Below are positions 45,193 to 57,390 of a stretch of DNA of 64,000 bases, piece by piece. The stretch's first letter is position 1. The number at the start of each line of letters is the position of its first letter. Source of the DNA: a virus. A program made the position numbers and the translations under genes. The stretch spans positions 33,309 through 97,308 of the IMG/VR virus record IMGVR_UViG_3300000651_000003; one strand, 5' to 3'. Below the pieces are notes generated by a model. It was not told the origin of the DNA and ran no database searches. It saw only the letters and a program-made list of their open reading frames with translations.

Positions 45193-47148
45193 ATGTATCA
45201 GCCCGCAATCATACTTGACGAGTACGAGGATAGTGCTACCAGATGGACTCCTCCTCGTCCTGAAGACTTGCCAACGCTGGAAGGCGTTAGTCGCATCTCA
45301 ATGGATACTGAGAATAGTGGCAAGAACGCCTTCGATGACTTCGTATGTGGAGTGTCGATTGGCTGGCGAGACCCCGAGAATCTTGCAGCGAAATCTCTCT
45401 ACGCTCCTGTTGGCCACATCGAAGGCAATATGGATCCTGAAATCGTCAAGATGTGGATGGAGTATGTTTTGCCGGGTAAGGAAATCGTTTTTGCAAATGG
45501 TAAGTACGATATTCAGATCATGCGCACCGGGCTGAAGAAAAAGTTTGGTATTGACCTCGAGGCTCTGGGTTGTAAAGTTCGTGATGTAGCATTCCCTGCA
45601 GCTCTGTTGGACGACAGCCCGTTTGCTGATTTAAGCCTTGACGCAATTGGCATTAAGTACGTTGGCAGAGGCAAGGAGAGATTCCCCGGGGACATTGACA
45701 AAATGGCTAGCTACCCGAGTTGGATGGCTGGGCCTTATGCCGAGGGTGACTCGTTGATCACTCTTGAAGCAGACGAGAACATGGAACCGTTCATCCGGCA
45801 AGAAGGTTTGGAAAATGTTCTTGAGTTGGAAAATAGTCTCATCTATGCTGTCTGTGAGATTGAGCGCAATGGCTGCCGGGTGCATCGACCAAAACTGGAG
45901 CAATGGCGCAGCGAGGTCAGGACTGAGTATGAGAAGATCCTACGAGAAATCTTTCAACTAACCGGTTTCCGGGTTGACCCCGGGACCGTCGACTCGATGA
46001 TGAAGCTGTTTAGTTTTCTTGGCCTTGAGCCACCGAAGAAAAAACCAAAGCGCAAATCCAAAGCAAAGGGTAAATCTAAGCATCAAGAGGAGGAGCCTGA
46101 AGATGAGGAAGAAAATAGCCAAAAACGCACCTTTGAGGTTGATGAGTTATTATCGTTTAATCACCCCATCTTCAATTTAGTTGTTGATGCCAGACGGCAG
46201 CAAAGTTTACTGTCGAGATTTCTAGATAAGTACTATGAAGCTCTTACGTGGGGGCACCAGAACGGCAATGATTTGTTAAGAGCGTCATTCCATCAATGCA
46301 AGAACAATTTGGAAGCGCTCAAAAAGAAAGAGAAGGCTAAGGGCACCGGATGGGGCCGCTTTAGTAGTAGTGGCGGAGGAGATCTCAAGAGTGGGTATTC
46401 GTTTAATGCTCAGCAAGTCATACGAGCAGACAAGCAGGAAGCAGAGCTGGGCGATGCTCACATAATTCGAGAATTGTTTATACCAGACGACGGCATGGAA
46501 TACTTCAGCGCAGATATGAAGCAGGTTGAATATAGAATCTATGCCGCATTGGCTGGAGCCAAGACCGTCATCAAGGCTTACCGAGAGGATGCAAATACTG
46601 ACTACCATGCTTTGCTACACGATCGTATCCGACCCTACAAACCACATATTCAGCGAACCATTGTTAAGAATGTCAGTTTCGCTTATGCGTACAACTCTAG
46701 TCCTCAGACGTTGGCAGCCACCGCAGGAGTCACAATTAAAGAGGCAGAAGAGATATATGAATTTTGTAAACAGCTAATGCCAGAGCGAGACGGGTTCATA
46801 AAGAAATGCGCTCATGATGCCGAGCATAAAGGATACGTGGCTACCATCATGGGAAGGCGGGCGCGGTTCAAGCCTAGCGATCCCTTTTACAGAGCGGTTA
46901 GTCGCGTAGTACAGGGCAGTGCAGCTGATATATTTAAGCTAGCCCTGAGAGACTTATACCGCGAGAGAAAAACGCTCGGCATACACAAACTACGACAGGT
47001 TGTGCACGACGAAATCGACGGAGATAAAGAGCCGGGAGAAATTTATACAAAAAGGATTCTCGATTTCCTTGACGAACAGAGGTTCAACCTATCCATACCG
47101 ATTCGCTGGGACCTACACGCTGGAGCCAACTGGAGGGACTGCAAATGA
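45193..47148 (+). CDS. polA: family A DNA polymerase with 3'-5' exonuclease
   Basis: Exo DTE, N..YD, Y...D; motif A DMKQVEYR, motif B R...KNVSF...Y, motif C HDE. Confidence 0.93.
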   Translation: MYQPAIILDEYEDSATRWTPPRPEDLPTLEGVSRISMDTENSGKNAFDDFVCGVSIGWRDPENLAAKSLYAPVGHIEGNMDPEIVKMWMEYVLPGKEIVFANGKYDIQIMRTGLKKKFGIDLEALGCKVRDVAFPAALLDDSPFADLSLDAIGIKYVGRGKERFPGDIDKMASYPSWMAGPYAEGDSLITLEADENMEPFIRQEGLENVLELENSLIYAVCEIERNGCRVHRPKLEQWRSEVRTEYEKILREIFQLTGFRVDPGTVDSMMKLFSFLGLEPPKKKPKRKSKAKGKSKHQEEEPEDEEENSQKRTFEVDELLSFNHPIFNLVVDARRQQSLLSRFLDKYYEALTWGHQNGNDLLRASFHQCKNNLEALKKKEKAKGTGWGRFSSSGGGDLKSGYSFNAQQVIRADKQEAELGDAHIIRELFIPDDGMEYFSADMKQVEYRIYAALAGAKTVIKAYREDANTDYHALLHDRIRPYKPHIQRTIVKNVSFAYAYNSSPQTLAATAGVTIKEAEEIYEFCKQLMPERDGFIKKCAHDAEHKGYVATIMGRRARFKPSDPFYRAVSRVVQGSAADIFKLALRDLYRERKTLGIHKLRQVVHDEIDGDKEPGEIYTKRILDFLDEQRFNLSIPIRWDLHAGANWRDCK

Positions 47149-47266
47149 GTGACTTGCAATTCTTTGTGCAGAGCATCAGAGTCAGTTTCGAAATCTTCTG
47201 TTTTGTGGTGATAATACTTTTCCTTGTATTCGCAATCGTCTTGCCGTTTTGGAACAGGAGCAAATA

Positions 47267-47674
47267 ATGTACACAATAACTAAAGAATTCCATTTCGAAG
47301 CTGCTCACCACTTGTACGGGTTGCCAGAAGGCCACCAATGCGCTCGGATGCATGGACACTCATACCGAGTGGAAGTAGAATTGGCTTCTCCCAAACTTAA
47401 CAGAGTGGGTTTTGTTGTTGACTATGGCGAGCTTGACGTATTCGCTACGTACCTGAAAGAAAACTTCGATCATCAGGACCTCAATTTTGTGCTACAAAGA
47501 CTGTCGAAAATCCAAAACATGTGGTACAACGCAACAGGCGGCGATGGTATGTATAATCCTACTGCAGAAAATCTTGCCCGGGGATTTTACCTTTGGTGTA
47601 AACAGCATTGGAAAGAGACTATAGCTGTCCGCGTCAGCGAGACTCAAAAGACTTGGGCGGAACACCGTCCATAG
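47267..47674 (+). CDS. queD: 6-carboxy-5,6,7,8-tetrahydropterin synthase QueD
   Basis: FEAAHHL, C.R.HGHSY, DH..LN, PTAENLA, VSET. Confidence 0.95.
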   Translation: MYTITKEFHFEAAHHLYGLPEGHQCARMHGHSYRVEVELASPKLNRVGFVVDYGELDVFATYLKENFDHQDLNFVLQRLSKIQNMWYNATGGDGMYNPTAENLARGFYLWCKQHWKETIAVRVSETQKTWAEHRP

Positions 47675-47703
47675 CAAAGCCACGGAAGGGAGAACATAAA
47701 TCT

Positions 47704-47883
47704 ATGATGTGGCTTCTTTTAATACTGGGTGCTCTGAATTTGGTTTGTATACTCATTGCACTCCGTAAACTATCAACCATGCTTCGCTTCGTCAAACAGA
47801 TGGAAACCTTATCGGCTTTAACATCGGGGCTGAAAGACTCATCTGAGAAATTGAAGGAAGCTCTTAAGAAACAGGGAGGTTAG
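47704..47883 (+). CDS. small single-TM coiled-coil protein
   Basis: Hydrophobic N-terminus, heptad C-terminus. Confidence 0.5.
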   Translation: MMWLLLILGALNLVCILIALRKLSTMLRFVKQMETLSALTSGLKDSSEKLKEALKKQGG

Positions 47884-47886
47884 GAA

Positions 47887-48150
47887 ATGTCTGTTCTCGA
47901 TGATGTAAATGCTCTGAAGGCTCAAATCGAGGCCACAGAAACAGTAGAAGGTTCTGCCACTACTTTCATTAACGGTGTGCCGGGCCTTATTTCAGCTGCA
48001 GTAGCCGCGGCGTTGGCGAACGGAGCCACCGCGGATCAACTGAAGCCTCTTACCGATCTTCAGTCTACACTGCAAGCACAAACCGAAGCGCTGTCAGCAG
48101 CGATCGCGGCAAACACTCCGCCGCCTCCGCCGCCTCCGGCCAATCCATAG
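47887..48150 (+). CDS. Ala-rich coiled-coil protein with poly-Pro tail
   Basis: ORF with GGAGG RBS. Confidence 0.6.
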   Translation: MSVLDDVNALKAQIEATETVEGSATTFINGVPGLISAAVAAALANGATADQLKPLTDLQSTLQAQTEALSAAIAANTPPPPPPPANP

Positions 48151-48223
48151 TCGCGAGCAATCGCTGTCACGCGGAAGCCCCGGGCAACCGTAAGGCCCGG
48201 GGCAGACCGCAGGAGAATCTAAG

Positions 48224-48523
48224 ATGAAGAAATTGTTTATGACGGTAGTGGTACTGGTGGCAATCGCTGCTGTGGTGTTTACGTCGCGACCTGCTAAGGC
48301 GGTTTCCGCACCTTCAGCTGTGACTCAGGCCGACATCTGCGACGACGTTATCGCAGTAGCTCAAACGGACGGCGACCAGACTTATACGTCGTGCATTGCC
48401 GCGTTCGGTAGAGGGATGGACACGCAGTGCTTTCAGAATGCGTCACGTACTTTCACATCTACGCTTCGACAACAGAATTTTGCACTCGGAACCGATTGCG
48501 TAGGAACGTACCAAAGCCAGTGA
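48224..48523 (+). CDS. small secreted Cys-containing protein
   Basis: MKK + hydrophobic signal peptide, AKA cleavage-like site; four Cys. Confidence 0.6.
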   Translation: MKKLFMTVVVLVAIAAVVFTSRPAKAVSAPSAVTQADICDDVIAVAQTDGDQTYTSCIAAFGRGMDTQCFQNASRTFTSTLRQQNFALGTDCVGTYQSQ

Positions 48524-48559
48524 AACCTTCGATGCGGCACGCTCCCACGTGGCTGCATC

Positions 48560-48793
48560 TTGGACTCAAACAAAATGGCAAAAACAGCATTTAATCGCAG
48601 CAATATACTCACATTTGAAGAGCGTCAAGAAGCAGCTATCAAGTGTCTCAACCTTATAGAGGATGAAATGGAATCATTATCTCCTAAAGATCGCAATTTC
48701 GTTATTGAGATGGGAGACAAAGTTCATACCGGTGGGGCGAGCGAGCGACAACTTGCTTGGCTGCGAGACATTTGTGGGAAGCTGGGTTACTGA
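48560..48793 (+). CDS. hypothetical protein
   Basis: LSPKDRNFV..M...SERQLAWL motif seen in phage proteins. Confidence 0.5.
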   Translation: MDSNKMAKTAFNRSNILTFEERQEAAIKCLNLIEDEMESLSPKDRNFVIEMGDKVHTGGASERQLAWLRDICGKLGY

Positions 48794-48919
48794 GTTGGAA
48801 AAAATTCACTTCAGCTTTCAGAGAAAACCTCTTTGCCAGAACCGCAGCCGTTTGCGGTGCACTGACGATAAATCAAGAGTTACTTGTGATAGCTGCAAAA
48901 GAGAATTGGAGAAAAGACC

Positions 48920-49594
48920 ATGGCTGAAATGACCCTGAAGGTATCTGAGGTATTTTACTCGTTGCAGGGAGAAGGTGCCCGGGCTGGCGAGCCATCGATA
49001 TTCATTCGACTGCAAGGGTGCTCTGCAAAATATGCTTGCGCTCGGTCAGGAGTAGTTTGTGATACAGAGTTCGAATCCGGCAAAGAGATGACCCTTAAAG
49101 AATTGGACGACACCATCTATAATGTTGAGGTGCGAACTGTGGCAGGAGCCACCCTGCGACCATGGTGGATCGTCTGGACTGGCGGCGAACCCCTCGACCA
49201 GTTGACTCCAGACATCCTGAGGTGGTTCAAAGACAAAAAGTACATGCAGGCGATAGAGACTAGCGGCATCAAATATATGTCGAATGAAATCTCTACCTTG
49301 CTCGACTGGATTGTCTGTTCGCCGAAGGTAGCAGAGCACATACTCGAAAAGAATTTCAAGGACGTCATCCGCAAGCATGAAGCTGGAAACGTTGACGAGC
49401 TGAGATATGTTCGTCACGCAGGCCAGCCCGGGGTCCCCGTACCTGCTCTACATGCTCAGTACTACTACCTGTCGCCCCATACTGACGGTCAGAAAATCAA
49501 CCAAGGAAATCTCCGACACTGCATCAAGCTCTGTTTAGAAAATCCAATGTGGAGGCTGTCTGTTCAGCAGCACAAGCTATGGCAGATACTATAA
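48920..49594 (+). CDS. queE: 7-carboxy-7-deazaguanine synthase QueE (radical SAM)
   Basis: EVFYSLQGEG, FIRL.GC...CDT, TGGEP, IETSG, SPK, WRLSVQ.HK. Confidence 0.95.
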   Translation: MAEMTLKVSEVFYSLQGEGARAGEPSIFIRLQGCSAKYACARSGVVCDTEFESGKEMTLKELDDTIYNVEVRTVAGATLRPWWIVWTGGEPLDQLTPDILRWFKDKKYMQAIETSGIKYMSNEISTLLDWIVCSPKVAEHILEKNFKDVIRKHEAGNVDELRYVRHAGQPGVPVPALHAQYYYLSPHTDGQKINQGNLRHCIKLCLENPMWRLSVQQHKLWQIL

Positions 49595-50166
49595 ACCAAA
49601 AACCAGACATCGAGCACCAATACGACCTGTTAAAGATGTCGATAGCTGACACCTTGATTGCCCTCGGCCTCAATATTGAGTCTGAGGGGCTTAAACGAAC
49701 GCCGGCTCGCATAGCCAAGTTCTATCTTGAGTTCCTGCGACCCCCAGACTTCGAATTCACCGTATTCGACAATGATGGCAGCGACGAGATGGTAATCCAG
49801 AGTGACATAGAGTTTGCCAGTCTCTGCGAGCACCACGGCCTACCATTTATCGGCGCCGCAGCGATCGCATACATACCAGACGGTAAAATTGTAGGCTTGT
49901 CGAAGCTGGCTCGGTGCCTTGATACTTATGCTCGTAGGTTCCAAAATCAGGAACGCATTACCCGGCAAGTTGCTGATGCATTACAAGAGGCGTTGAATCC
50001 AAAAGGAGTCGCTGTTGTACTTAAGGCCCGGCACTTCTGCATCGAGATTCGCGGAGTGAGAAAGCGCGGTTCAATCACTACTACATCTTGTCTGACAGGA
50101 GTATTTAAAAACGACCCGGCTTGCCGCAATGAATTTCTATCACTAGCACGAGGAATGAGAATATGA
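49579..50166 (+). CDS. folE: GTP cyclohydrolase I
   Basis: TPAR, SLCEHH.LPF, VGLSKLAR, Q.QERIT, H.C...RGV. Confidence 0.96.
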   Translation: MADTINQKPDIEHQYDLLKMSIADTLIALGLNIESEGLKRTPARIAKFYLEFLRPPDFEFTVFDNDGSDEMVIQSDIEFASLCEHHGLPFIGAAAIAYIPDGKIVGLSKLARCLDTYARRFQNQERITRQVADALQEALNPKGVAVVLKARHFCIEIRGVRKRGSITTTSCLTGVFKNDPACRNEFLSLARGMRI

Positions 50167-50885
50167 GTACCCCAGAAACTGTGGCCCTAGAGCTTGACGA
50201 ACCAACTACCAACATCGACAAAATCCACCCGGAGTTAAGGCAGTTCGCCAAACCAATGGAGGACTTAATCCCTGACCCGGAGAACGCCAACAAGCACGAC
50301 GCCCGCAACCTGAAAATGATTGCCGAGAGTCTTATCCGGTTTGGTCAAGTAGTGTTGCTCAAGGTCAATCGAGAAACCAACTTCATCGAAAAAGGTAACG
50401 GCACCTACATGGCAGCCAAAATGCTTGGTTGGACTCAGCTTGCTGCAATATGGTCAGACTTAGATAGGACAGAAGCGATCGCATACGGTTTGATTGATAA
50501 TCGCTGTGGGCAGACATCTCGCCCCGACTATGCGCAGACAGGAAAGCACCTTAGGGAGTTGAAAGAGGCTGACTACGAGATGATGCAATTTTGGACTCCG
50601 GAAGAGGCGCTGCCACTCGTTAGAGGGGAGTTTGTCAAGCCGGAAATCAGTGACGAGAAGTTTGACTCAGGGTTGCAGCGTGGTAGGCCGATATCGAAAA
50701 TCTCAGCTAGCGAGCGCATAACTGTAGACCGAGCCATTGCGTTCGTCAGAACCAAGGACAAGCGGTACAAGACCGAAGGCTCGGCCCTTGACTTCATATG
50801 TGGCGAGTTCATGGCATATCATGTCAACGATCTTGACAACGAGACCGAGGACCAAATCGAGCTCGAAGCTCTGTCGTTAGAGTAA
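50163..50885 (+). CDS. ParB/Srx-like N-terminal domain protein
   Basis: L.PDP.NA..H...I..SL..FG...GNG...AA..LGW...DNR. Confidence 0.75.
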   Translation: MSTPETVALELDEPTTNIDKIHPELRQFAKPMEDLIPDPENANKHDARNLKMIAESLIRFGQVVLLKVNRETNFIEKGNGTYMAAKMLGWTQLAAIWSDLDRTEAIAYGLIDNRCGQTSRPDYAQTGKHLRELKEADYEMMQFWTPEEALPLVRGEFVKPEISDEKFDSGLQRGRPISKISASERITVDRAIAFVRTKDKRYKTEGSALDFICGEFMAYHVNDLDNETEDQIELEALSLE

Positions 50886-51038
50886 ACTCATGGTCAGCAT
50901 ATTCAATCGCATACAAAATCTCTGGCGAGGTTCTTGGCTTTATTGTTTTACTCATCACCACGATCCTGTGCATACCATGGATGGCAGGATCTGGTGTAGG
51001 GTTTGTTTGAAATTCAGGTTGCTCTAAAAGGAGGAGAA

Positions 51039-51761
51039 ATGGAACAGGGAAAGGCTGTGGTGCTTCATAGTGGTGGCCTTGACTCCACTACATTGCTTTA
51101 TTACATCAAGGGCATGGGATTCGAAGTTTACCCACTAACGATTTACTATGGCCAGCGGCACAGCCGGGAGATAACGTCGGCTGTTGAGATTTGTGCTACA
51201 ATGGGTATTCCAGAGCGGTTCAGAAAAGTTGACCTCGAGAGTCTGCAAAGCGTAATGCTAGGCAGTAGTCAGACAGACCGCACTGTAGAAGTACCCGAGG
51301 GGCACTACGCAGCAGACAACATGGCGATTACCGTAGTACCGAATCGCAACATGATTCTGCTGGCCGTCGCTACTGCTTATGCAATCAGCATTAAAGCGAA
51401 ACTTGTGGCCTACGCTGCTCACATCGGCGACCATGACCAGTATCCGGATTGCCGACAGGTCTTCATTGACCAATTAGCAGAAGCCATCAAGCTCTGTGAC
51501 AACAACCCACCGTATCTAATTGCACCCTTCAGTGGGTACTCGAAACAGCAGATTGCAGAGCTAGCCAACACTATCGGCGTGCCAATCGAGTTGACTTACT
51601 CATGCTACAAGGGTGAGGAAAAGCATTGTGGTCGTTGCGGGACTTGTGTTGAGAGAGCAGAAGCATTAAGCCTCGCAGGAGTGGAAGATAAGACTCAGTA
51701 CGTGGATGCAGAGTATTGGAAAGCGGTGACCAACCATGCAAATGCACAAGTTTCGCAATAG
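51039..51761 (+). CDS. queC: 7-cyano-7-deazaguanine synthase QueC
   Basis: SGGLDS, YGQRH, VPNRN, YPDCR, SCY...CGRCGTC. Confidence 0.96.
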   Translation: MEQGKAVVLHSGGLDSTTLLYYIKGMGFEVYPLTIYYGQRHSREITSAVEICATMGIPERFRKVDLESLQSVMLGSSQTDRTVEVPEGHYAADNMAITVVPNRNMILLAVATAYAISIKAKLVAYAAHIGDHDQYPDCRQVFIDQLAEAIKLCDNNPPYLIAPFSGYSKQQIAELANTIGVPIELTYSCYKGEEKHCGRCGTCVERAEALSLAGVEDKTQYVDAEYWKAVTNHANAQVSQ

Positions 51762-52515
51762 TCTGTGGTTCGCCATTACTTTGGTTGCATTCTACCTTGG
51801 TGCGATCGTGCTGGCGAACTACCTCATCACAAAATATGGTCAGGTAGCTGTGCCATTTGTGGCATTCGCTCTAATTCCATTTGACTTGATTGCCCGGGAC
51901 TTGATGCAAGACCATTGGAACTGGGTTCCCGGCAGAAGCAGAATGTACGTCGCTGAGAGAATGTCTGTGGTAATAGTGGTAGGTGCTGTCATCTCATATG
52001 CGACGGGAACAGGTTCATTCAGGATAAATGCTGCCTCTTGCTTGGCATTCATGGCAGCTGCCACTATTGACGCGCTGACCTACCAGTGGATGATACGGTA
52101 CGGGCGGATATTCCGCATTAACGCCGCTACCTTTACCGCTGCGGTGACTGACTCGCTCATCTTCGTGTTCATTGCATTCAGCGCAATTAACTGGCAACTA
52201 GTAGGATTGCAGATTGTTATGAAAATCTCGGGAGGGTTTGTCTGGTCATTGCTGCTGTACAAACTTTTTCGGCAGCGCTACGACCGAGTAGAGTTTGTTC
52301 CACCTATGATTTTCAAAAAAGAATACAAACCCACTTTCGACTATGCCCGATTGTTTGCAAAAGAGCGAGTAATCCAAGGTTCGTTTGTTGGTCCAGTGAA
52401 TTGTGGTCTGTGCTCAGGTAGTTCTAATACCGGGTGTCGTTGCCACTCCGCTGAAGGATTAGGCTGCGACATGCTTTGTCACGTAGACTACATTGGCAGG
52501 TTAGTTAGGAGATAA
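51736..52515 (+). CDS. yhhQ: YhhQ/VUT-family preQ0/preQ1 transporter-like membrane protein
   Basis: Multi-TM; IVLAN, DL.ARD, AS..AF, D...Y, DS..F..IAF, K..GG..W. Confidence 0.75.
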   Translation: MQMHKFRNSLWFAITLVAFYLGAIVLANYLITKYGQVAVPFVAFALIPFDLIARDLMQDHWNWVPGRSRMYVAERMSVVIVVGAVISYATGTGSFRINAASCLAFMAAATIDALTYQWMIRYGRIFRINAATFTAAVTDSLIFVFIAFSAINWQLVGLQIVMKISGGFVWSLLLYKLFRQRYDRVEFVPPMIFKKEYKPTFDYARLFAKERVIQGSFVGPVNCGLCSGSSNTGCRCHSAEGLGCDMLCHVDYIGRLVRR

Positions 52516-52518
52516 AGT

Positions 52519-53043
52519 ATGTCAGAAGAAATCAAAGCGAAGAGCGGCAGTGCGTGGGAGTGTGCTATGGTGCCTGCCGAGAAAAGGCGTACACCGGATC
52601 AAATAGCCACTATCGCTGCTTGGGTAATGCAATGCCCGGGTTGGTCACCAGCATGGGACAAATTCTTGTTATGCTGTGTTCACCTTCGACAGATTGAAGG
52701 AGTTAAGCCGGCTGTATTCACTATGCAAGGTGCCACGCATGAGATTATGCTAGTGGCGCTGGACCCAACGTATGCCGCAGACCCCGACGATATATTCTCA
52801 GACAAAACGAGAATACTTCGCCCAATAAACATCGTGCAGCAATTTATCGTCAACAATGACGACCAAGCTATAGAGCTTACGAAAAATGTTGCAATGGCTT
52901 GTATTCAGGGCATATTACCAATCGAACCGCAGGGTATCAGAGGAGCTAGGGAGTACTGGGAAAGCACAATACTTACTACCGCTCAGCACATTCGAGATGG
53001 TTGCTGCTCAGAGGATTCCGCAACTAAAGAGACGATAAATTGA
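52519..53043 (+). CDS. hypothetical protein inside dpd cluster
   Basis: VHLR...ATHE...ALDP motif; between yhhQ-like and dpdA-like genes. Confidence 0.6.
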   Translation: MSEEIKAKSGSAWECAMVPAEKRRTPDQIATIAAWVMQCPGWSPAWDKFLLCCVHLRQIEGVKPAVFTMQGATHEIMLVALDPTYAADPDDIFSDKTRILRPINIVQQFIVNNDDQAIELTKNVAMACIQGILPIEPQGIRGAREYWESTILTTAQHIRDGCCSEDSATKETIN

Positions 53044-53816
53044 CTCAAATATATTTCGCAAGTACTCCCCGGGCTGACCTGCTTGAACTGACACTTGGGC
53101 AGTGGGATTGGGTTGACAAACCACTCAACATTCTAGTGGCGTTTCCTTTCTCGAAAGTGTGGCACTCAGAAAATGAAGAGAAAAACAATTTCTGGCAGTG
53201 CAAGGCGACCATGCTTGACTCGGGCGCATACTCTGCTTGGTCTGCGGGCAAGGAGATTGATATGGATGAACTCTGCAAAGAGGCAGTTCGTACATATACA
53301 AAGCCCGATGGATCGATCCACAAATGCTGGGACGAAGTAGTTGCTTTGGACGTCATCGGCGACGATAAAGCTAGCCTAGTTAATTCATTGGAAATGAAGA
53401 ACCGAGGATTGGAAATAATGCCGGTGTTCCACTTCGGTGACGACTGGGCAATCCTACAGGAATACAAAAGTCAGTTCCATCGCATTGGCATAGCGTCAGG
53501 GCATGGGGCGCCGTTTGCTCAGCGCATCAAGTGGACGAATCAATGTTTCGCCCGGGCCTACCCAGCGAAGTTTCACTCCTTTGGTTGGATTGAAGAACGA
53601 GTGCTGATGGAGTTTCCTTTTGTGACAGCTGACTCCTCGAGTTGGGCTGCCGGCACTCGGTTCGGTGTTTCGAAAATCCACAAAGGTATGCGCATTCCAA
53701 AAAAGAGTGAAGTCGGGGCCAGCAACGCGGACTTAAGGTTTGATTTGTTAGCATACCTCGAGATGCAAGAGAGGTTGGTAGACAGGTGGAAATCTGAGTT
53801 AGCTTGGGCTAACTAA
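53040..53816 (+). CDS. dpdA: DpdA-like guanine transglycosylase (TGT fold), paralog 1
   Basis: LDSGAYS, LDVIGD, PVFH, H.FG, TADSSSW; in que/folE cluster. Confidence 0.8.
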   Translation: MTQIYFASTPRADLLELTLGQWDWVDKPLNILVAFPFSKVWHSENEEKNNFWQCKATMLDSGAYSAWSAGKEIDMDELCKEAVRTYTKPDGSIHKCWDEVVALDVIGDDKASLVNSLEMKNRGLEIMPVFHFGDDWAILQEYKSQFHRIGIASGHGAPFAQRIKWTNQCFARAYPAKFHSFGWIEERVLMEFPFVTADSSSWAAGTRFGVSKIHKGMRIPKKSEVGASNADLRFDLLAYLEMQERLVDRWKSELAWAN

Positions 53817-54041
53817 AAAAAGCTTGGGCCTTCCACAGTGGGCCTGAGAGGGTGCGAGGGTTGGTAGAAGTCGAGGGGTCGATTAGGCCACTCTCGCACT
53901 CCTAAAAAGGGGGAAACGATGTTAAGTTGGCGCAGACTCGGAAGCACAAGAAGCAGAAGCGGTACGGGTTGTCTGGTCCCGATGCTGATTGCAGTTGGGC
54001 TTGTATACGGGATTCTGTTGTACGTGTTGTCGAGAGGCTGA

Positions 54042-54671
54042 ATGGCAAAATATCCTATTTCGATTCAAGATTCGTTGCATGATGGCAAGCTTGGGCCAGC
54101 ATTCGCTAACCTGCTAAAGTTACATGTCAAGCCGTGGCATGAAATTCTTGACCCTACTGCCGGCAGCCGGCTCCTCTGGGAAGGCATACCATTAGACAAA
54201 TACCACGTCTATTTCAGCGATATACAAGGTGATAACGGCAACATCAAAATGGATCTGCGAGAAGCTGGGTTACGATTTGCTCTGGGGTCATTTGATGCAG
54301 TGGTCTTCGACCCACCCTACTTCATTGGTAAATCGAAGACGAAAGACCCGCGAGAGGACAAGTACGGTGGTTATGTGCAGTCATATGAGGAGCTCAGGCA
54401 GTTCATTCAAATGTGCACTCACCCAATCTGGCATCTACTAAAGCCGGGTGGTAAGTTGATTGTGAAATGCAGTGACCAGTACTCAGTGCCTGAAAGAAAA
54501 ATCTATACTCATCATATCGACTGGGCGATCAAGATGCAAGAGCATTACGAAATCGTTGACATAATGATCTACCGACACCATCGCATCAGCCCGACCGCGT
54601 TCCAAGTTAAGAATCGGCCTTGCTCAGTAATCATGCACACATACTTCATCGTTGGGAGAAAAATAGTATGA
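54042..54671 (+). CDS. amino-(N6A/N4C)-type methyltransferase
   Basis: LDPTAGS SAM-binding motif, FDPPY catalytic motif, LKPGG.L..K. Confidence 0.8.
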   Translation: MAKYPISIQDSLHDGKLGPAFANLLKLHVKPWHEILDPTAGSRLLWEGIPLDKYHVYFSDIQGDNGNIKMDLREAGLRFALGSFDAVVFDPPYFIGKSKTKDPREDKYGGYVQSYEELRQFIQMCTHPIWHLLKPGGKLIVKCSDQYSVPERKIYTHHIDWAIKMQEHYEIVDIMIYRHHRISPTAFQVKNRPCSVIMHTYFIVGRKIV

Positions 54672-55513
54672 CTGAGTTATACTTCGCAGCTCCTAACTCA
54701 TTTCACATTCAGCGCGACACCTTCGGTCGCTGGGATTGGTTGAACCCGCTGAATGTTCTCGTGGCTTATGAGCCGAAAGAAGGATTCCTGTCATGGGTGC
54801 AGCGAGGAGCCGGTTGGACTCAGACACCGGGTAAGTTCGATGCCACTCGAGGTCAAGGTTACCAATTCGCTCAGTACCCAGATCCAACTTGCACTCCCGG
54901 GGTCAAAACGATTTTAGATTCAGGAGCATTCAGCGCTTGGAAATCAGGCACTTCTGTCAACTTACAAATGTTGATTGAAGAAGCGAAAAAGCGCTGCCCG
55001 AGATGGGACGAAGTAGTTTCGCTCGACGTGATCGGTGACCCAGTAGAAAGTACATTCAACGCAGTGCAGATGCAGAAAGCCGGTCTGCATGTTATACCGG
55101 TATTTCATTATGGCGAGGACTGGGGCTACCTCGAGGCTTACAAGGATCGGTTTGGCGGCAGAGTGGGTCTGGGCGGAATAGCCACGGGAATCTCAAGTAC
55201 GCAGAAAAGAAAATGGTTGTCACAATGCTTTGCTAGAGCATACCCGGCAAAGTTTCACGGGTTCGGCGTAGCCACCAAAGAATTGCTAATGAAGTTTCCT
55301 TTCTACTCGGTAGACACAGCGTCGTGGCACACCGCACTAAGGTATGGCAGGTCATCTGCGGCCCCGGAAATCAAGCAACCGAAAAAGTCTAGTCTTGATG
55401 GAACTCAGTTCGACGGGTCAGGCTATGACTTGAGATACGAAATAATGGCCTACCTTGAGATGGCTCAAGAGGTGAATGAGCGTTGGAAAGGTGAGTTGTC
55501 GTGGGCACATTAG
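54668..55513 (+). CDS. dpdA: DpdA-like guanine transglycosylase, paralog 2
   Basis: LDSGAFS, LDVIGD, PVFHYGE, GLGG, HGFG, SVDTASW. Confidence 0.8.
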   Translation: MTELYFAAPNSFHIQRDTFGRWDWLNPLNVLVAYEPKEGFLSWVQRGAGWTQTPGKFDATRGQGYQFAQYPDPTCTPGVKTILDSGAFSAWKSGTSVNLQMLIEEAKKRCPRWDEVVSLDVIGDPVESTFNAVQMQKAGLHVIPVFHYGEDWGYLEAYKDRFGGRVGLGGIATGISSTQKRKWLSQCFARAYPAKFHGFGVATKELLMKFPFYSVDTASWHTALRYGRSSAAPEIKQPKKSSLDGTQFDGSGYDLRYEIMAYLEMAQEVNERWKGELSWAH

Positions 55514-55663
55514 TTCAAGTATGCGTGTGTATGAATTGCAACATATATTTCAAAAGAAGGATTCCGACTGCAATCGACGAAGAAGCTATTTTAGTAGAAA
55601 AGTGCCCAAGATGTGAGTCAACAAACTGGATTCCGATGGGAATCGACACAGAGTCCTTAGAAG

Positions 55664-56473
55664 ATGAGATTCCGTCTATACTTCGCCCTGCATAACACTC
55701 CAATGGCAAACGACATGACGTTTGGCCAATGGGATTGGAATGCTCGCCCACTAAACATCCTATGCTCGTTTGCACTCAAAGGTGCTCTGCGATCGTGGAA
55801 AAATCGTCAGTACGAAACCCCCGGGGTAAAGACCATTCTTGACAGCGGTGCATACTCAGCATGGAAATCCGGAACCGATGTAGACTATGATGACTTTATT
55901 TTAGAAGCTATAGAAGAGGGTTGGGACGAAGTGGCCGCATTAGACGTTATTGGGGATCCCGTCAGCAGTCAGGCATGTGCATTCGATATGAAAGTTCAAC
56001 ATCACATTGACACTCTCCCAGTGTTCCACTACGGCGAGCCGTGGGAATACTTGGCTAAGTACAAAGAACATTTCAACAGTCGAGTGGCTATCGGTGGAAT
56101 TGCTGGCATTGGTAAGCAGCAGAAAATCAAATTTGTCGGTCAATGCTTTGCTCGGGCGTATCCTTGTAGCTTCCACGGGTTTGGCGTTGGCGATGAAGAT
56201 GTGTTAATGGAGTTTCCGTTCGCGAGTGCAGACACTGCATCATGGGGATCGGTGCATATGTATGGTCGCAGCATGGCAGCCCCGGGCCTGAAAATACCAA
56301 AGCTTGAGGACGGAGATAGAAATAAGCATTACGACTTAAGATTCGAAGTAGCCGCATTCTGCGAAATGGAAGATCGAGTTCGTGATCGATGGAGCAATGA
56401 GCTCCAAAAATTAGAGTCACTGCTGAACCCTTTAAGTAGTGGGGCGGTGGCAAAAACTCAAAAATCTAGTTGA
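55664..56473 (+). CDS. dpdA: DpdA-like guanine transglycosylase, paralog 3
   Basis: LDSGAYS, LDVIGD, PVFHYGE, AIGG, HGFG, SADTASW. Confidence 0.8.
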   Translation: MRFRLYFALHNTPMANDMTFGQWDWNARPLNILCSFALKGALRSWKNRQYETPGVKTILDSGAYSAWKSGTDVDYDDFILEAIEEGWDEVAALDVIGDPVSSQACAFDMKVQHHIDTLPVFHYGEPWEYLAKYKEHFNSRVAIGGIAGIGKQQKIKFVGQCFARAYPCSFHGFGVGDEDVLMEFPFASADTASWGSVHMYGRSMAAPGLKIPKLEDGDRNKHYDLRFEVAAFCEMEDRVRDRWSNELQKLESLLNPLSSGAVAKTQKSS

Positions 56474-56499
56474 GATTCTATGCTCAAATAGGTTAGACT
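56470..56499 (+). promoter_or_regulatory. promoter TTGAGA-18-TAGACT
   Basis: Matches 39910-39939 including downstream TTAGACTC..G. Confidence 0.5.
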
Positions 56500-56547
56500 C
56501 CGGGCCGTGTTAAGTTGTGTAAAGAGTGATCGAGAAAGGTAGTTGAA

Positions 56548-57321
56548 ATGACAGATCAAGAGAAGCCTGCCCAGCTGTTTGCCCTTGTTGATGTGAGCTC
56601 TACTGAGAATGCTTCATTCCTCAAACGAGCATCACTCAAGGACATTTTAGTTTGGCAGAAGTACTTTGTGGCGGAAGGCAAGGCAGTCAAACGGCTGGAC
56701 TTGATCCATGATTTGGAGACACTTCAATACCTTTTTTGGAACACGACCCAGACGGCCCCTGCAGATACAATCGAAGCTTTGGTGTCTGCCTGCGCCGAGT
56801 TGGCTAACCAAGTGCCGGTAGATGACACTACAAGCATGGAAGAGTTGCTAAATCAACTTCCTGCGAACGGTGGCTCTGCCGACGTAACCAATTTAGAAGA
56901 AGGAGAAACTGTTACAATGGGACAAGGTGCAAAGACAGAAGGAACACTGGAAAAAGGTTCTGCCAAGAAGAAAACCAGTGCGAAGAAGCCTGCTGCGGAT
57001 GCTGCCGAGACTACAAAGCCGGCTGCTGAAGCGAAACCGAAGAAAGAGAAGGACCCGACTGGTCGACCGAGCGAAGGTACTGCAACCCGCAAGGTGTGGG
57101 ATATCGCCGACAAGTTGGCTGAAGCTCAGGGTCATACACCGACTCGTGGCGACGTTATTGATGCGTCAGTCAAGGCTGGTGTCAACAAGGCGACTGCCGG
57201 GGTGCAGTATGGTGCGTGGATGAAGGGAATGAAGCGCGACCCCGCGCCGAAGCCGGTCAAGGAAGTCGAGGCTGCGGAGGAGACTGAGACCGAGGACAAC
57301 GAAGAGGGTGAGGAAGAGTAA
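56548..57321 (+). CDS. putative nucleoid-associated/DNA-binding protein (K/A-rich linker, HTH-like domain, acidic tail)
   Basis: AKKKTSAKKPAA linker; VWDIADK...AGVNKATAGVQY..W; own promoter and terminator. Confidence 0.6.
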   Translation: MTDQEKPAQLFALVDVSSTENASFLKRASLKDILVWQKYFVAEGKAVKRLDLIHDLETLQYLFWNTTQTAPADTIEALVSACAELANQVPVDDTTSMEELLNQLPANGGSADVTNLEEGETVTMGQGAKTEGTLEKGSAKKKTSAKKPAADAAETTKPAAEAKPKKEKDPTGRPSEGTATRKVWDIADKLAEAQGHTPTRGDVIDASVKAGVNKATAGVQYGAWMKGMKRDPAPKPVKEVEAAEETETEDNEEGEEE

Positions 57322-57360: not shown

Positions 57361-57390
57361 ACGGGGTCTCGACATGGGACCCCGTTTTTT
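57361..57390 (+). terminator. intrinsic terminator
   Basis: ACGGGGTCTC / GGGACCCCGT stem followed by TTTTT. Confidence 0.75.

Follow-up and report, generated by a model that had tools for sequence, protein, structure and literature searches.

Guanine exchange chemistry on DNA has been demonstrated for the DpdA of Salmonella and for the DpdA enzymes of phages 9g, CAjan and iggy (PMC10164549, PMC6884629, PMC7544227, PMC10484667). Single DpdAs are limited to certain motifs and cover 16-30% of G (PMC10484667, PMC10516641); the iggy enzyme acts on GA sites, 16.5% of G, and the CAjan enzyme on GA and GGC (PMC10484667). Here we describe an array of three tandem dpdA genes (dpdA-1, dpdA-2 and dpdA-3, encoding copies 1, 2 and 3) in a 64,000-nucleotide stretch of virus DNA, called the window below, which comprises bases 33309-97308 of the 97,308-bp IMG/VR record IMGVR_UViG_3300000651_000003, rated 87% complete. 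Coordinates of genes in this phage are those of the window. We propose that the copies act as three separate writers, with copies 2 and 3 as inserters of preQ0 at different sequence contexts and copy 1 acting at a context of its own and probably preferring another base. This reading, which is built on comparison of sequences and on one structural model, is given a probability of roughly 0.55.

The DpdA1 proteins of the phages Escherichia 9g, CAjan and Pseudomonas iggy (PMC6884629, PMC7544227, PMC10484667) resemble the three copies in several respects. They belong to the same family (phrog_887), have no zinc motif and are encoded beside folE, queD, queE and queC; the motifs LDSGA[FY]SA, LD.IGD, FH.GE, the FH.FG histidine and D..SW are held in common, and their loop is of the GG type found in copies 2 and 3. 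However, each of these phages has one DpdA as against three here, and the three copies are at most 31-35% identical to any isolate enzyme. The loop type of copy 1 is present in no characterised DpdA. The same chemistry would also be expected from comparison with the Salmonella Montevideo DpdA/DpdB system (PDB 7UI4; PMC10164549), to whose Asp95, Asp130 and Asp256 equivalents can be assigned here, and a ParB-like gene is found in both clusters, DpdB being a ParB-like ATPase. The bacterial DpdA differs in its length of 416 residues, its large insertions, its zinc site and its place in a restriction system, whereas the phage copies are barrels of 258-281 amino acids without a zinc motif. The enzyme family, the chemistry and the pathway are already known; a conserved array of three probable writers that differ in loop type is new and is described in no paper that we found.

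Family, fold and conserved residues of the three copies

By family assignment all three copies are DpdA1-type transglycosylases. Each of them matches phrog_887: copy 1 (258 aa; 53040..53816, plus strand) with an E-value of 2e-32, copy 2 (281 aa; 54668..55513, plus strand) with 9.1e-33, and copy 3 (269 aa; 55664..56473, plus strand) with 3e-31. The same family is matched by characterised DpdA1 proteins, namely 9g-like JenP1 (8.3e-99), iggy (5.1e-86) and phiSM (9.1e-67), and the whole 97,308-bp record contains exactly three phrog_887 matches. No Pfam family was matched by any of the three copies, and a PDB search with a profile of the three sequences gave no match. The first-pass annotation, made from the DNA letters alone, had described three open reading frames (ORFs) with a shared core; all the motifs it quoted are present in three intact plus-strand genes and lie within the 84 columns that are invariant among the copies.

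The fold was modelled for copy 1, and the fold of copies 2 and 3 is deduced from their 44-45% identity to it. The AlphaFold (AF2) model, built on 66 homologs, has a mean predicted local distance difference test (pLDDT) score of 95.2 and consists of eight beta-alpha units forming an 8-stranded barrel, with no domain besides this 258-aa barrel. Foldseek ranks tRNA-guanine transglycosylases (TGTs) first among its matches, with a probability of 1.00. The second aligner, VIA, superimposes 237 of the 258 residues on the Zymomonas TGT 3uvi (Z 17.6, root-mean-square deviation 3.3 Å) and gives Z 17.4 for the archaeal TGT 1iq8. The earlier description of the proteins as DpdA/TGT-like is borne out by these matches together with the membership of all three in phrog_887.

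Six residues (D60, D104, F181, D198, H131 and H179 in copy 1 numbering) do not vary among the three copies or among the 66 diverse homologs, and in the model the conserved residues are located at the C-terminal ends of strands 3, 4, 5, 7 and 8. The best PDB match of the 66-sequence profile, a weak one (E 0.072), is the Salmonella DpdA 7ui4, which is not among the 50 matches listed by Foldseek or VIA. This alignment places D60, D104, F181 and D198 on Asp95, Asp130, Leu236 and Asp256, to which roles in acid/base catalysis, base binding, base stacking and nucleophilic attack, respectively, have been assigned (PMC10164549). The Asp residues of the DSG and D.xSW motifs were rightly said to be kept in every copy. 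The histidine of the xHx[FL]G (FH.FG) motif is in position 196 in JenP1 and in positions 179, 197 and 171 in copies 1, 2 and 3; His196 of the 9g-type DpdA is absent from DpdA2 (PMC6884629). No zinc-type CxC/CxxC motif was found in the three copies or in the other phage DpdA1 proteins checked.

The start of dpdA-1 is a TTG codon, which overlaps the stop codon of the upstream gene as TTGA. For dpdA-2 the ORF finder places the start at 54620, but translation almost certainly begins at the ATG of 54668, because this codon is preceded by a GGGAGA ribosome site 9 nt upstream, forms an ATGA overlap with the stop of the methyltransferase gene and yields the 'MT.LYFA' beginning that is common to the other copies. 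Copy 2 also contains an insertion of about 25 amino acids ahead of the DSG strand (window 54800-54880, residues ~45-72), which is absent from copies 1 and 3 and from most copy 2 orthologs; the corresponding loop in the copy 1 model is on the face of the barrel opposite the active site. A clamp-binding tail was considered for copy 3 and dropped, the C-terminal extension not being conserved among copy 3 orthologs.

Age of the trio and copy number in relatives

Pairwise protein identity is 44% between copies 1 and 2, 45% between copies 1 and 3 and 57% between copies 2 and 3. At the DNA level the likeness between copies is confined to motif-coding stretches of about 40 nt at 71-73% identity, and therefore the copies are considered to be old paralogs, not an assembly artefact or the product of recent conversion. 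Recent gene conversion between them was rejected, as no long shared DNA stretch is present. Assembly duplication is further argued against by an independent 4.3-kb soil contig (L032), which holds the same three copies in the same order, with identities of 72, 57 and 69%. The virus record itself was found again in two soil-metagenome DNA sequencing runs, of which one is probably its origin; no RNA run was among the matches listed.

In the tree of the closest homologs the three copies fall into three orthologous clades, of which those of copies 2 and 3 are sisters (27 rows, support 98*) and that of copy 1 (100*) is an earlier branch. Four more contigs (93430, 58176, 22311 and 9568 bp) appear to hold one member per clade, as deduced from the equal sizes of the source contigs. 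The 22,311-bp contig among them, the source of copy 2/copy 3 orthologs (P0005 and P0013), is distinct from an IMG/VR record of the same length (L014) that has a single distant copy. Within the clades identity ranges from 55 to 84% (55-83% for the orthologs of copy 3), yet the copy-specific N-terminal and post-SW loops are near-invariant in each. In the clade of copy 1 these are the segments SSPRADLLE and WAAGTRFGVSK, which have similarly conserved counterparts in copies 2 and 3; among the three copies, conservation of these loops is strictest in copy 1. Judged from the tree and from these contigs, the three genes form a module of long standing that has been conserved in one lineage of uncultured soil phages.

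Phage clusters were stated in the first-pass annotation to carry mostly one copy, and this agrees with what was found in relatives. Among isolate phages (INPHARED), copy 3 as the query gave 132 records with one match place each, and copy 2 gave 237 match places in 234 records, that is, three extra places. Tandem arrays of two or three copies are present in 10 of 97 distinct related loci collected from IMG/VR, metagenomes and metagenome-assembled genomes (MAGs), or in 10 of 53 if only those loci are counted whose flanks are long enough to reveal a second copy; 87 of the 97 have a single copy. Tandem DpdA is thus not unique to this phage. The family tree points to several independent origins of tandem pairs, and the catalytic residues are retained by all copies of all the tandem arrays. 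When the cluster was compared with isolate phages by megablast there was no match, nor did a scan of IMG/VR with copy 3 as a single protein give one, and a scan of MAG contigs gave only two distant single-copy loci. Multi-copy DpdA arrays are not mentioned in the DpdA papers searched, a set that leaves out the 2024 review PMC10966956.

The isolate records with more than one match place include at least two, the Microbacterium phages Megan (MN586020, gp2 and gp3; L136 670-2543) and Nicole72. As in the window, tandem DpdA paralogs are located beside queC, queD, queE and folE, and both copies keep the catalytic residues. These phages differ in having two copies, both of the GG type, which arose by an independent duplication (sisters with support 100), and in having a long QueC of 455 aa. 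The two Megan proteins are annotated only as 'queuine tRNA-ribosyltransferase', and no study of the Megan/Nicole72 pair was found in the literature search. Megan is a cultured phage and offers a possible experimental entry point for multi-copy DpdA.

Catalytic-face loops and a proposed division of labour

In the model of copy 1 the copy-specific segments correspond to the beta1-alpha1 element, the beta6-alpha6 loop and the beta8-alpha8 loop, all of them on the catalytic face. The earlier observation that the copies diverge in discrete loops (N-terminal, post-SW, and IGIASG versus GLGG/AIGG) is real, and each of these loops is conserved among the orthologs of its own copy. Copies 2 and 3 differ mainly in two of them, beta1-alpha1 and beta8-alpha8. 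The beta8-alpha8 loop contains a conserved aromatic residue about 10 residues past the nucleophile. In Salmonella DpdA an essential residue, Phe265, lies nine residues past the nucleophile and extends into the groove of the DNA (PMC10164549), and the phage aromatic probably corresponds to this wedge.

The third segment is related to the base. In the TGT family the 7-substituent is read by the Gly-rich beta6-alpha6 loop, where bulky residues exclude preQ1 (PMC10164549); in the copy 1 model this loop comprises residues 153-158 and follows the strand 148-152. The preQ0 inserters iggy, JenP1 (9g-like) and SHIN8 (CAjan-like) have T[IL]GG[ML]VG in this loop, and in the DpdA1 proteins of phiSM and Dp-1, which are dPreQ1 phages, the sequence is GISPAND. 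A queF homolog is found alongside GG-type loops in 2 of 83 loci as against 14 of 18 for G[LI]S-type loops (Fisher p 6.6e-12, relatedness not being corrected for). In 13 of the 15 loci with a G[LI]SCR[FL]GE-type loop, queF directly follows or overlaps dpdA, and in the remaining two the sequence stops at dpdA or shortly after it, so that the DNA downstream is lacking; examples with the loop G[LI]SCRFGE[PS] in which queF follows at once, often with an overlap, are L036 7977-9097 and L034 1208-2336. The presence of a G[LI]SCRFGE[PS] loop may mark DNA modification of the preQ1 type. The association of loop type with queF provides a testable sequence rule for distinguishing preQ0-type from preQ1-type modification in uncultured phages.

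Copies 2 (G-L-G-G-I-A-T) and 3 (A-I-G-G-I-A-G) are of the GG type and fit the pattern [AGT][IL]GG[MLIV][VA], in a phage in which queF was not found. The search of the 97-kb record gave no queF; the sole match to the QueF model is a weak one inside folE, rejected as a T-fold cross-hit. The rule that a GG loop together with the lack of queF marks a preQ0 inserter is one that we infer from 83 loci with GG-type loops, 18 with G[LI]S-type loops and five known phages. Copy 1 (G-I-A-S-G-H) does not fit the pattern. Its remodelled 7-substituent loop, G-I-A-S-G-H-G-A-P, recurs as G[IL]ASGHGAP in 10 of its 12 orthologs. The nearest relatives of copy 1 have the loop GLSCRFGEP, and copy 1 shares with them the branch, the length and frame of the loop (G-[LI]-x-x-x-x-G-x-P) and the FHSFGW motif. 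They differ in being queF-associated and in having S-C-R-F where copy 1 has A-S-G-H, in a record with no queF found. Phylogenetic placement and loop frame indicate that copy 1 descends from the queF-associated branch and that its pocket loop has been remodelled, in a phage for which no queF was detected.

The following mechanism is proposed. Three DpdA1-type DNA-guanine transglycosylases, all predicted to be catalytically competent, would be co-transcribed with a complete preQ0 pathway (FolE, QueD, QueE and QueC). Acting on replicated phage DNA, each enzyme would flip a guanine out, pass through an intermediate in which its Asp is bound covalently to the deoxyribose, and insert a 7-deazaguanine. 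Copies 2 and 3, the sister duplicates, would insert preQ0 at different short contexts and in this way raise the protected share of G, while copy 1 would combine a different base preference or pocket geometry with its own DNA-contact loops. Copies 2 and 3 more likely differ in the sequence context that they target. A different base for copy 1 is plausible, because its 7-substituent loop is of another type and loop type tracks queF across the family. The reading of three writers fits the known facts, namely that a single DpdA is restricted to certain motifs and that base specificity changes easily within the family. The gaps left by a single writer expose many restriction and CRISPR target sites, and with three different writers a phage could gain wider cover or a mixture of modifications in a simple way. 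Such a multi-writer system had been suggested in the first-pass annotation; what stands of it is a division of labour supported indirectly, by the ancient trio and by copy-specific loops conserved among orthologs that are 55-84% identical, and the activity, base and motif of each copy remain predictions. The array also provides natural, closely related enzymes in which the determinants of DpdA motif and base could be sought, which bears on site-specific DNA labelling.

Several points weigh against the proposed three-writer scheme. First, the residue correspondence with 7ui4 comes from the weak profile match (E 0.072) and the agreement of motifs and secondary structure. Second, the trio on the four contigs of 93430, 58176, 22311 and 9568 bp was deduced from equal sizes and not from DNA, and a further long contig (96162 bp) shows homologs of copies 2 and 3 only. 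Third, the loop-queF association counts related sequences without phylogenetic correction. Fourth, the loop of copy 1 fits neither characterised type, so its base is unpredictable and it could have reverted to preQ0. Finally, a copy 1 ortholog from a 4465-bp Joint Genome Institute contig (P0117) has the N-terminal and post-SW loops of copy 1 and the copy 2-type loop G-L-G-G-I-A-T-G-I-S-S-I, and looks like a gene-conversion chimera of neighbouring paralogs; a GG loop on a copy 1 body suggests that loop swapping is tolerated and that the loop may matter less than supposed.

A more far-reaching version is a combinatorial writer set, in which each copy has its own motif and copy 1 inserts another 7-deazaguanine than copies 2 and 3, such as host-made preQ1, an intermediate of the pathway like 7-amido-7-deazaguanine (ADG) or 7-carboxy-7-deazaguanine (CDG), or an undescribed product. 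We regard it as tentative, with the odds against it. If it is true, virion DNA would contain two kinds of deazaguanine in three contexts, and the beta6-alpha6 loop would predict the base across the DpdA1 family.

It is unlikely that the paralogs, for example copies 2 and 3, form a hetero-oligomer that is required for efficient modification of DNA. In favour of it are the close linkage of the genes and their probable co-transcription, and orthologs of copies 2 and 3 are found together on every longer contig seen (58176, 9568, 22311, 93430, 96162, 3115 and 4279 bp). The eukaryotic TGT, with QTRT1 and the non-catalytic partner QTRT2, likewise employs paralogous TGT-fold proteins in one pathway. 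TGT-family enzymes have been reported as dimers (PMC6884629), and the eukaryotic enzyme is a heterodimer of paralogs (PMC10164549). However, all three copies here keep the active-site residues, and the full catalytic set in every copy of this and other arrays is unlike an inactive partner subunit. The dimer interface of bacterial TGT is located in the zinc subdomain, and the short phage DpdA1 proteins have no CxC/CxxC zinc motif. A single-copy DpdA1 is active alone in E. coli, even without the host TGT (PMC6884629), and both free Salmonella DpdA and its DNA complex have been described as globular and compact, the complex having been modelled as one DpdA docked on a duplex (PMC10164549).

Equally improbable is that all copies do the same job, with the same base and overlapping motifs, and are kept for dosage, timing or back-up against host factors that inhibit or recognise them. 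On the one hand, the catalytic core is common to all copies, tandem duplication is recurrent in the family, and the chimeric P0117 indicates that segments are exchangeable between copies. On the other hand, the copies are only 44-57% identical and free of recent gene conversion, and catalytic-face loops conserved per copy across orthologs with 55-84% identity would not be expected of interchangeable copies. That one copy, most likely copy 1, has ceased to write DNA and instead either acts on the tRNA of the host or, without catalysis, binds DNA or scavenges bases is very improbable: its loop is unusual, it belongs to a branch other than that of copies 2 and 3, and the cluster also contains a YhhQ-like precursor transporter, but copy 1 keeps D60, D104, H131, H179, F181 and D198, has the strictest loop conservation and lacks an extra domain.

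The gene cluster around the array

The array had been placed in one 7-deazaguanine cluster, and the precursor genes are indeed located directly upstream of it on the same strand. These are queD (6-carboxy-tetrahydropterin synthase; 47249..47674; Pfam PTPS, E 3.4e-29), a queE-like gene for a radical S-adenosylmethionine 7-carboxy-7-deazaguanine synthase (48920..49594), folE (GTP cyclohydrolase I; 49549..50166; Pfam GTP_cyclohydroI, E 8.9e-61) and queC (preQ0 synthase; 51003..51761; Pfam QueC, E 1.8e-57), the last encoding a short form of 252 aa without the amidotransferase domain. The queE-like gene gave no match in the Pfam search and is named from its cluster context; its homologs adjoin dpdA in 52 related loci. 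From 47.2 to 57.4 kb the genes form a tight block, all of them on the plus strand, which ends with a 257-aa acidic low-complexity protein (56548..57321; phrog_7864, E 7.8e-16), a homolog of which follows copy 3 in L032. This block is probably one transcription unit, because the sole strong terminator-like hairpin (57361..57385, plus strand; an 11-bp stem followed by TTTTT), found by sequence scan, is situated past the last gene; inside 47000-57300 there is no terminator-like site of comparable strength.

A ParB-like gene (50163..50885; phrog_620, E 1.1e-21) lies between folE and queC and has homologs in 30 related dpdA loci. Its product is short (240 aa) and is comparable to DpdB in being ParB-like. 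Since the bacterial DpdA needs the ParB-like ATPase DpdB, a helper role of the phage ParB-like protein is worth testing. In phage phiSM the ParB-like gp51 directly adjoins DpdA, and a tblastn match in Arthrobacter phage Sonali extends over gene 86, which is annotated as ParB-like, and gene 87, which encodes DpdA. ParB-type proteins carry a DGxHR box; at this position the protein from the window has G-N-G-T-Y.

A YhhQ/Vut_1-like membrane protein (51736..52515; Pfam Vut_1, E 4.8e-7; phrog_4899, E 3.3e-21) has a Cys-rich C-terminal tail of about 75 aa, with the cysteine pattern C..C......C.C.......C...C, which extends outside the Pfam model. It is followed by a 174-aa gene (52519..53043), the stop of which overlaps the dpdA-1 start; this was rejected as part of the conserved module, having no Pfam or PHROG family, only 3 homologs and an AF2 pLDDT of 42. 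The 225-bp gap after copy 1 (53817-54041) contains a possible 40-aa hydrophobic mini-ORF that ends at the methyltransferase start, and an ORF of 64 aa in the interval from copy 2 to copy 3 (55501-55695) overlaps the start of copy 3; neither has a family match.

Within the array, a small gene resembling DPPY-type DNA methyltransferases (54042..54671, plus strand; Pfam N6_N4_Mtase, E 4.1e-5, under the curated cut-off; phrog_24333, E 5.6e-16) is located between copies 1 and 2. A gene of this type (209-216 aa) is kept in the array of both phages, in a different slot, being placed between copies 2 and 3 in L032 (2052-2702); no other locus compared gave a match. The slot between copies 1 and 2 in L032 is occupied by a DUF6884 gene (663-1283; PF21818, E 3e-25), which has no counterpart in the window and has homologs in 12 dpdA loci, including a two-copy one (L040).

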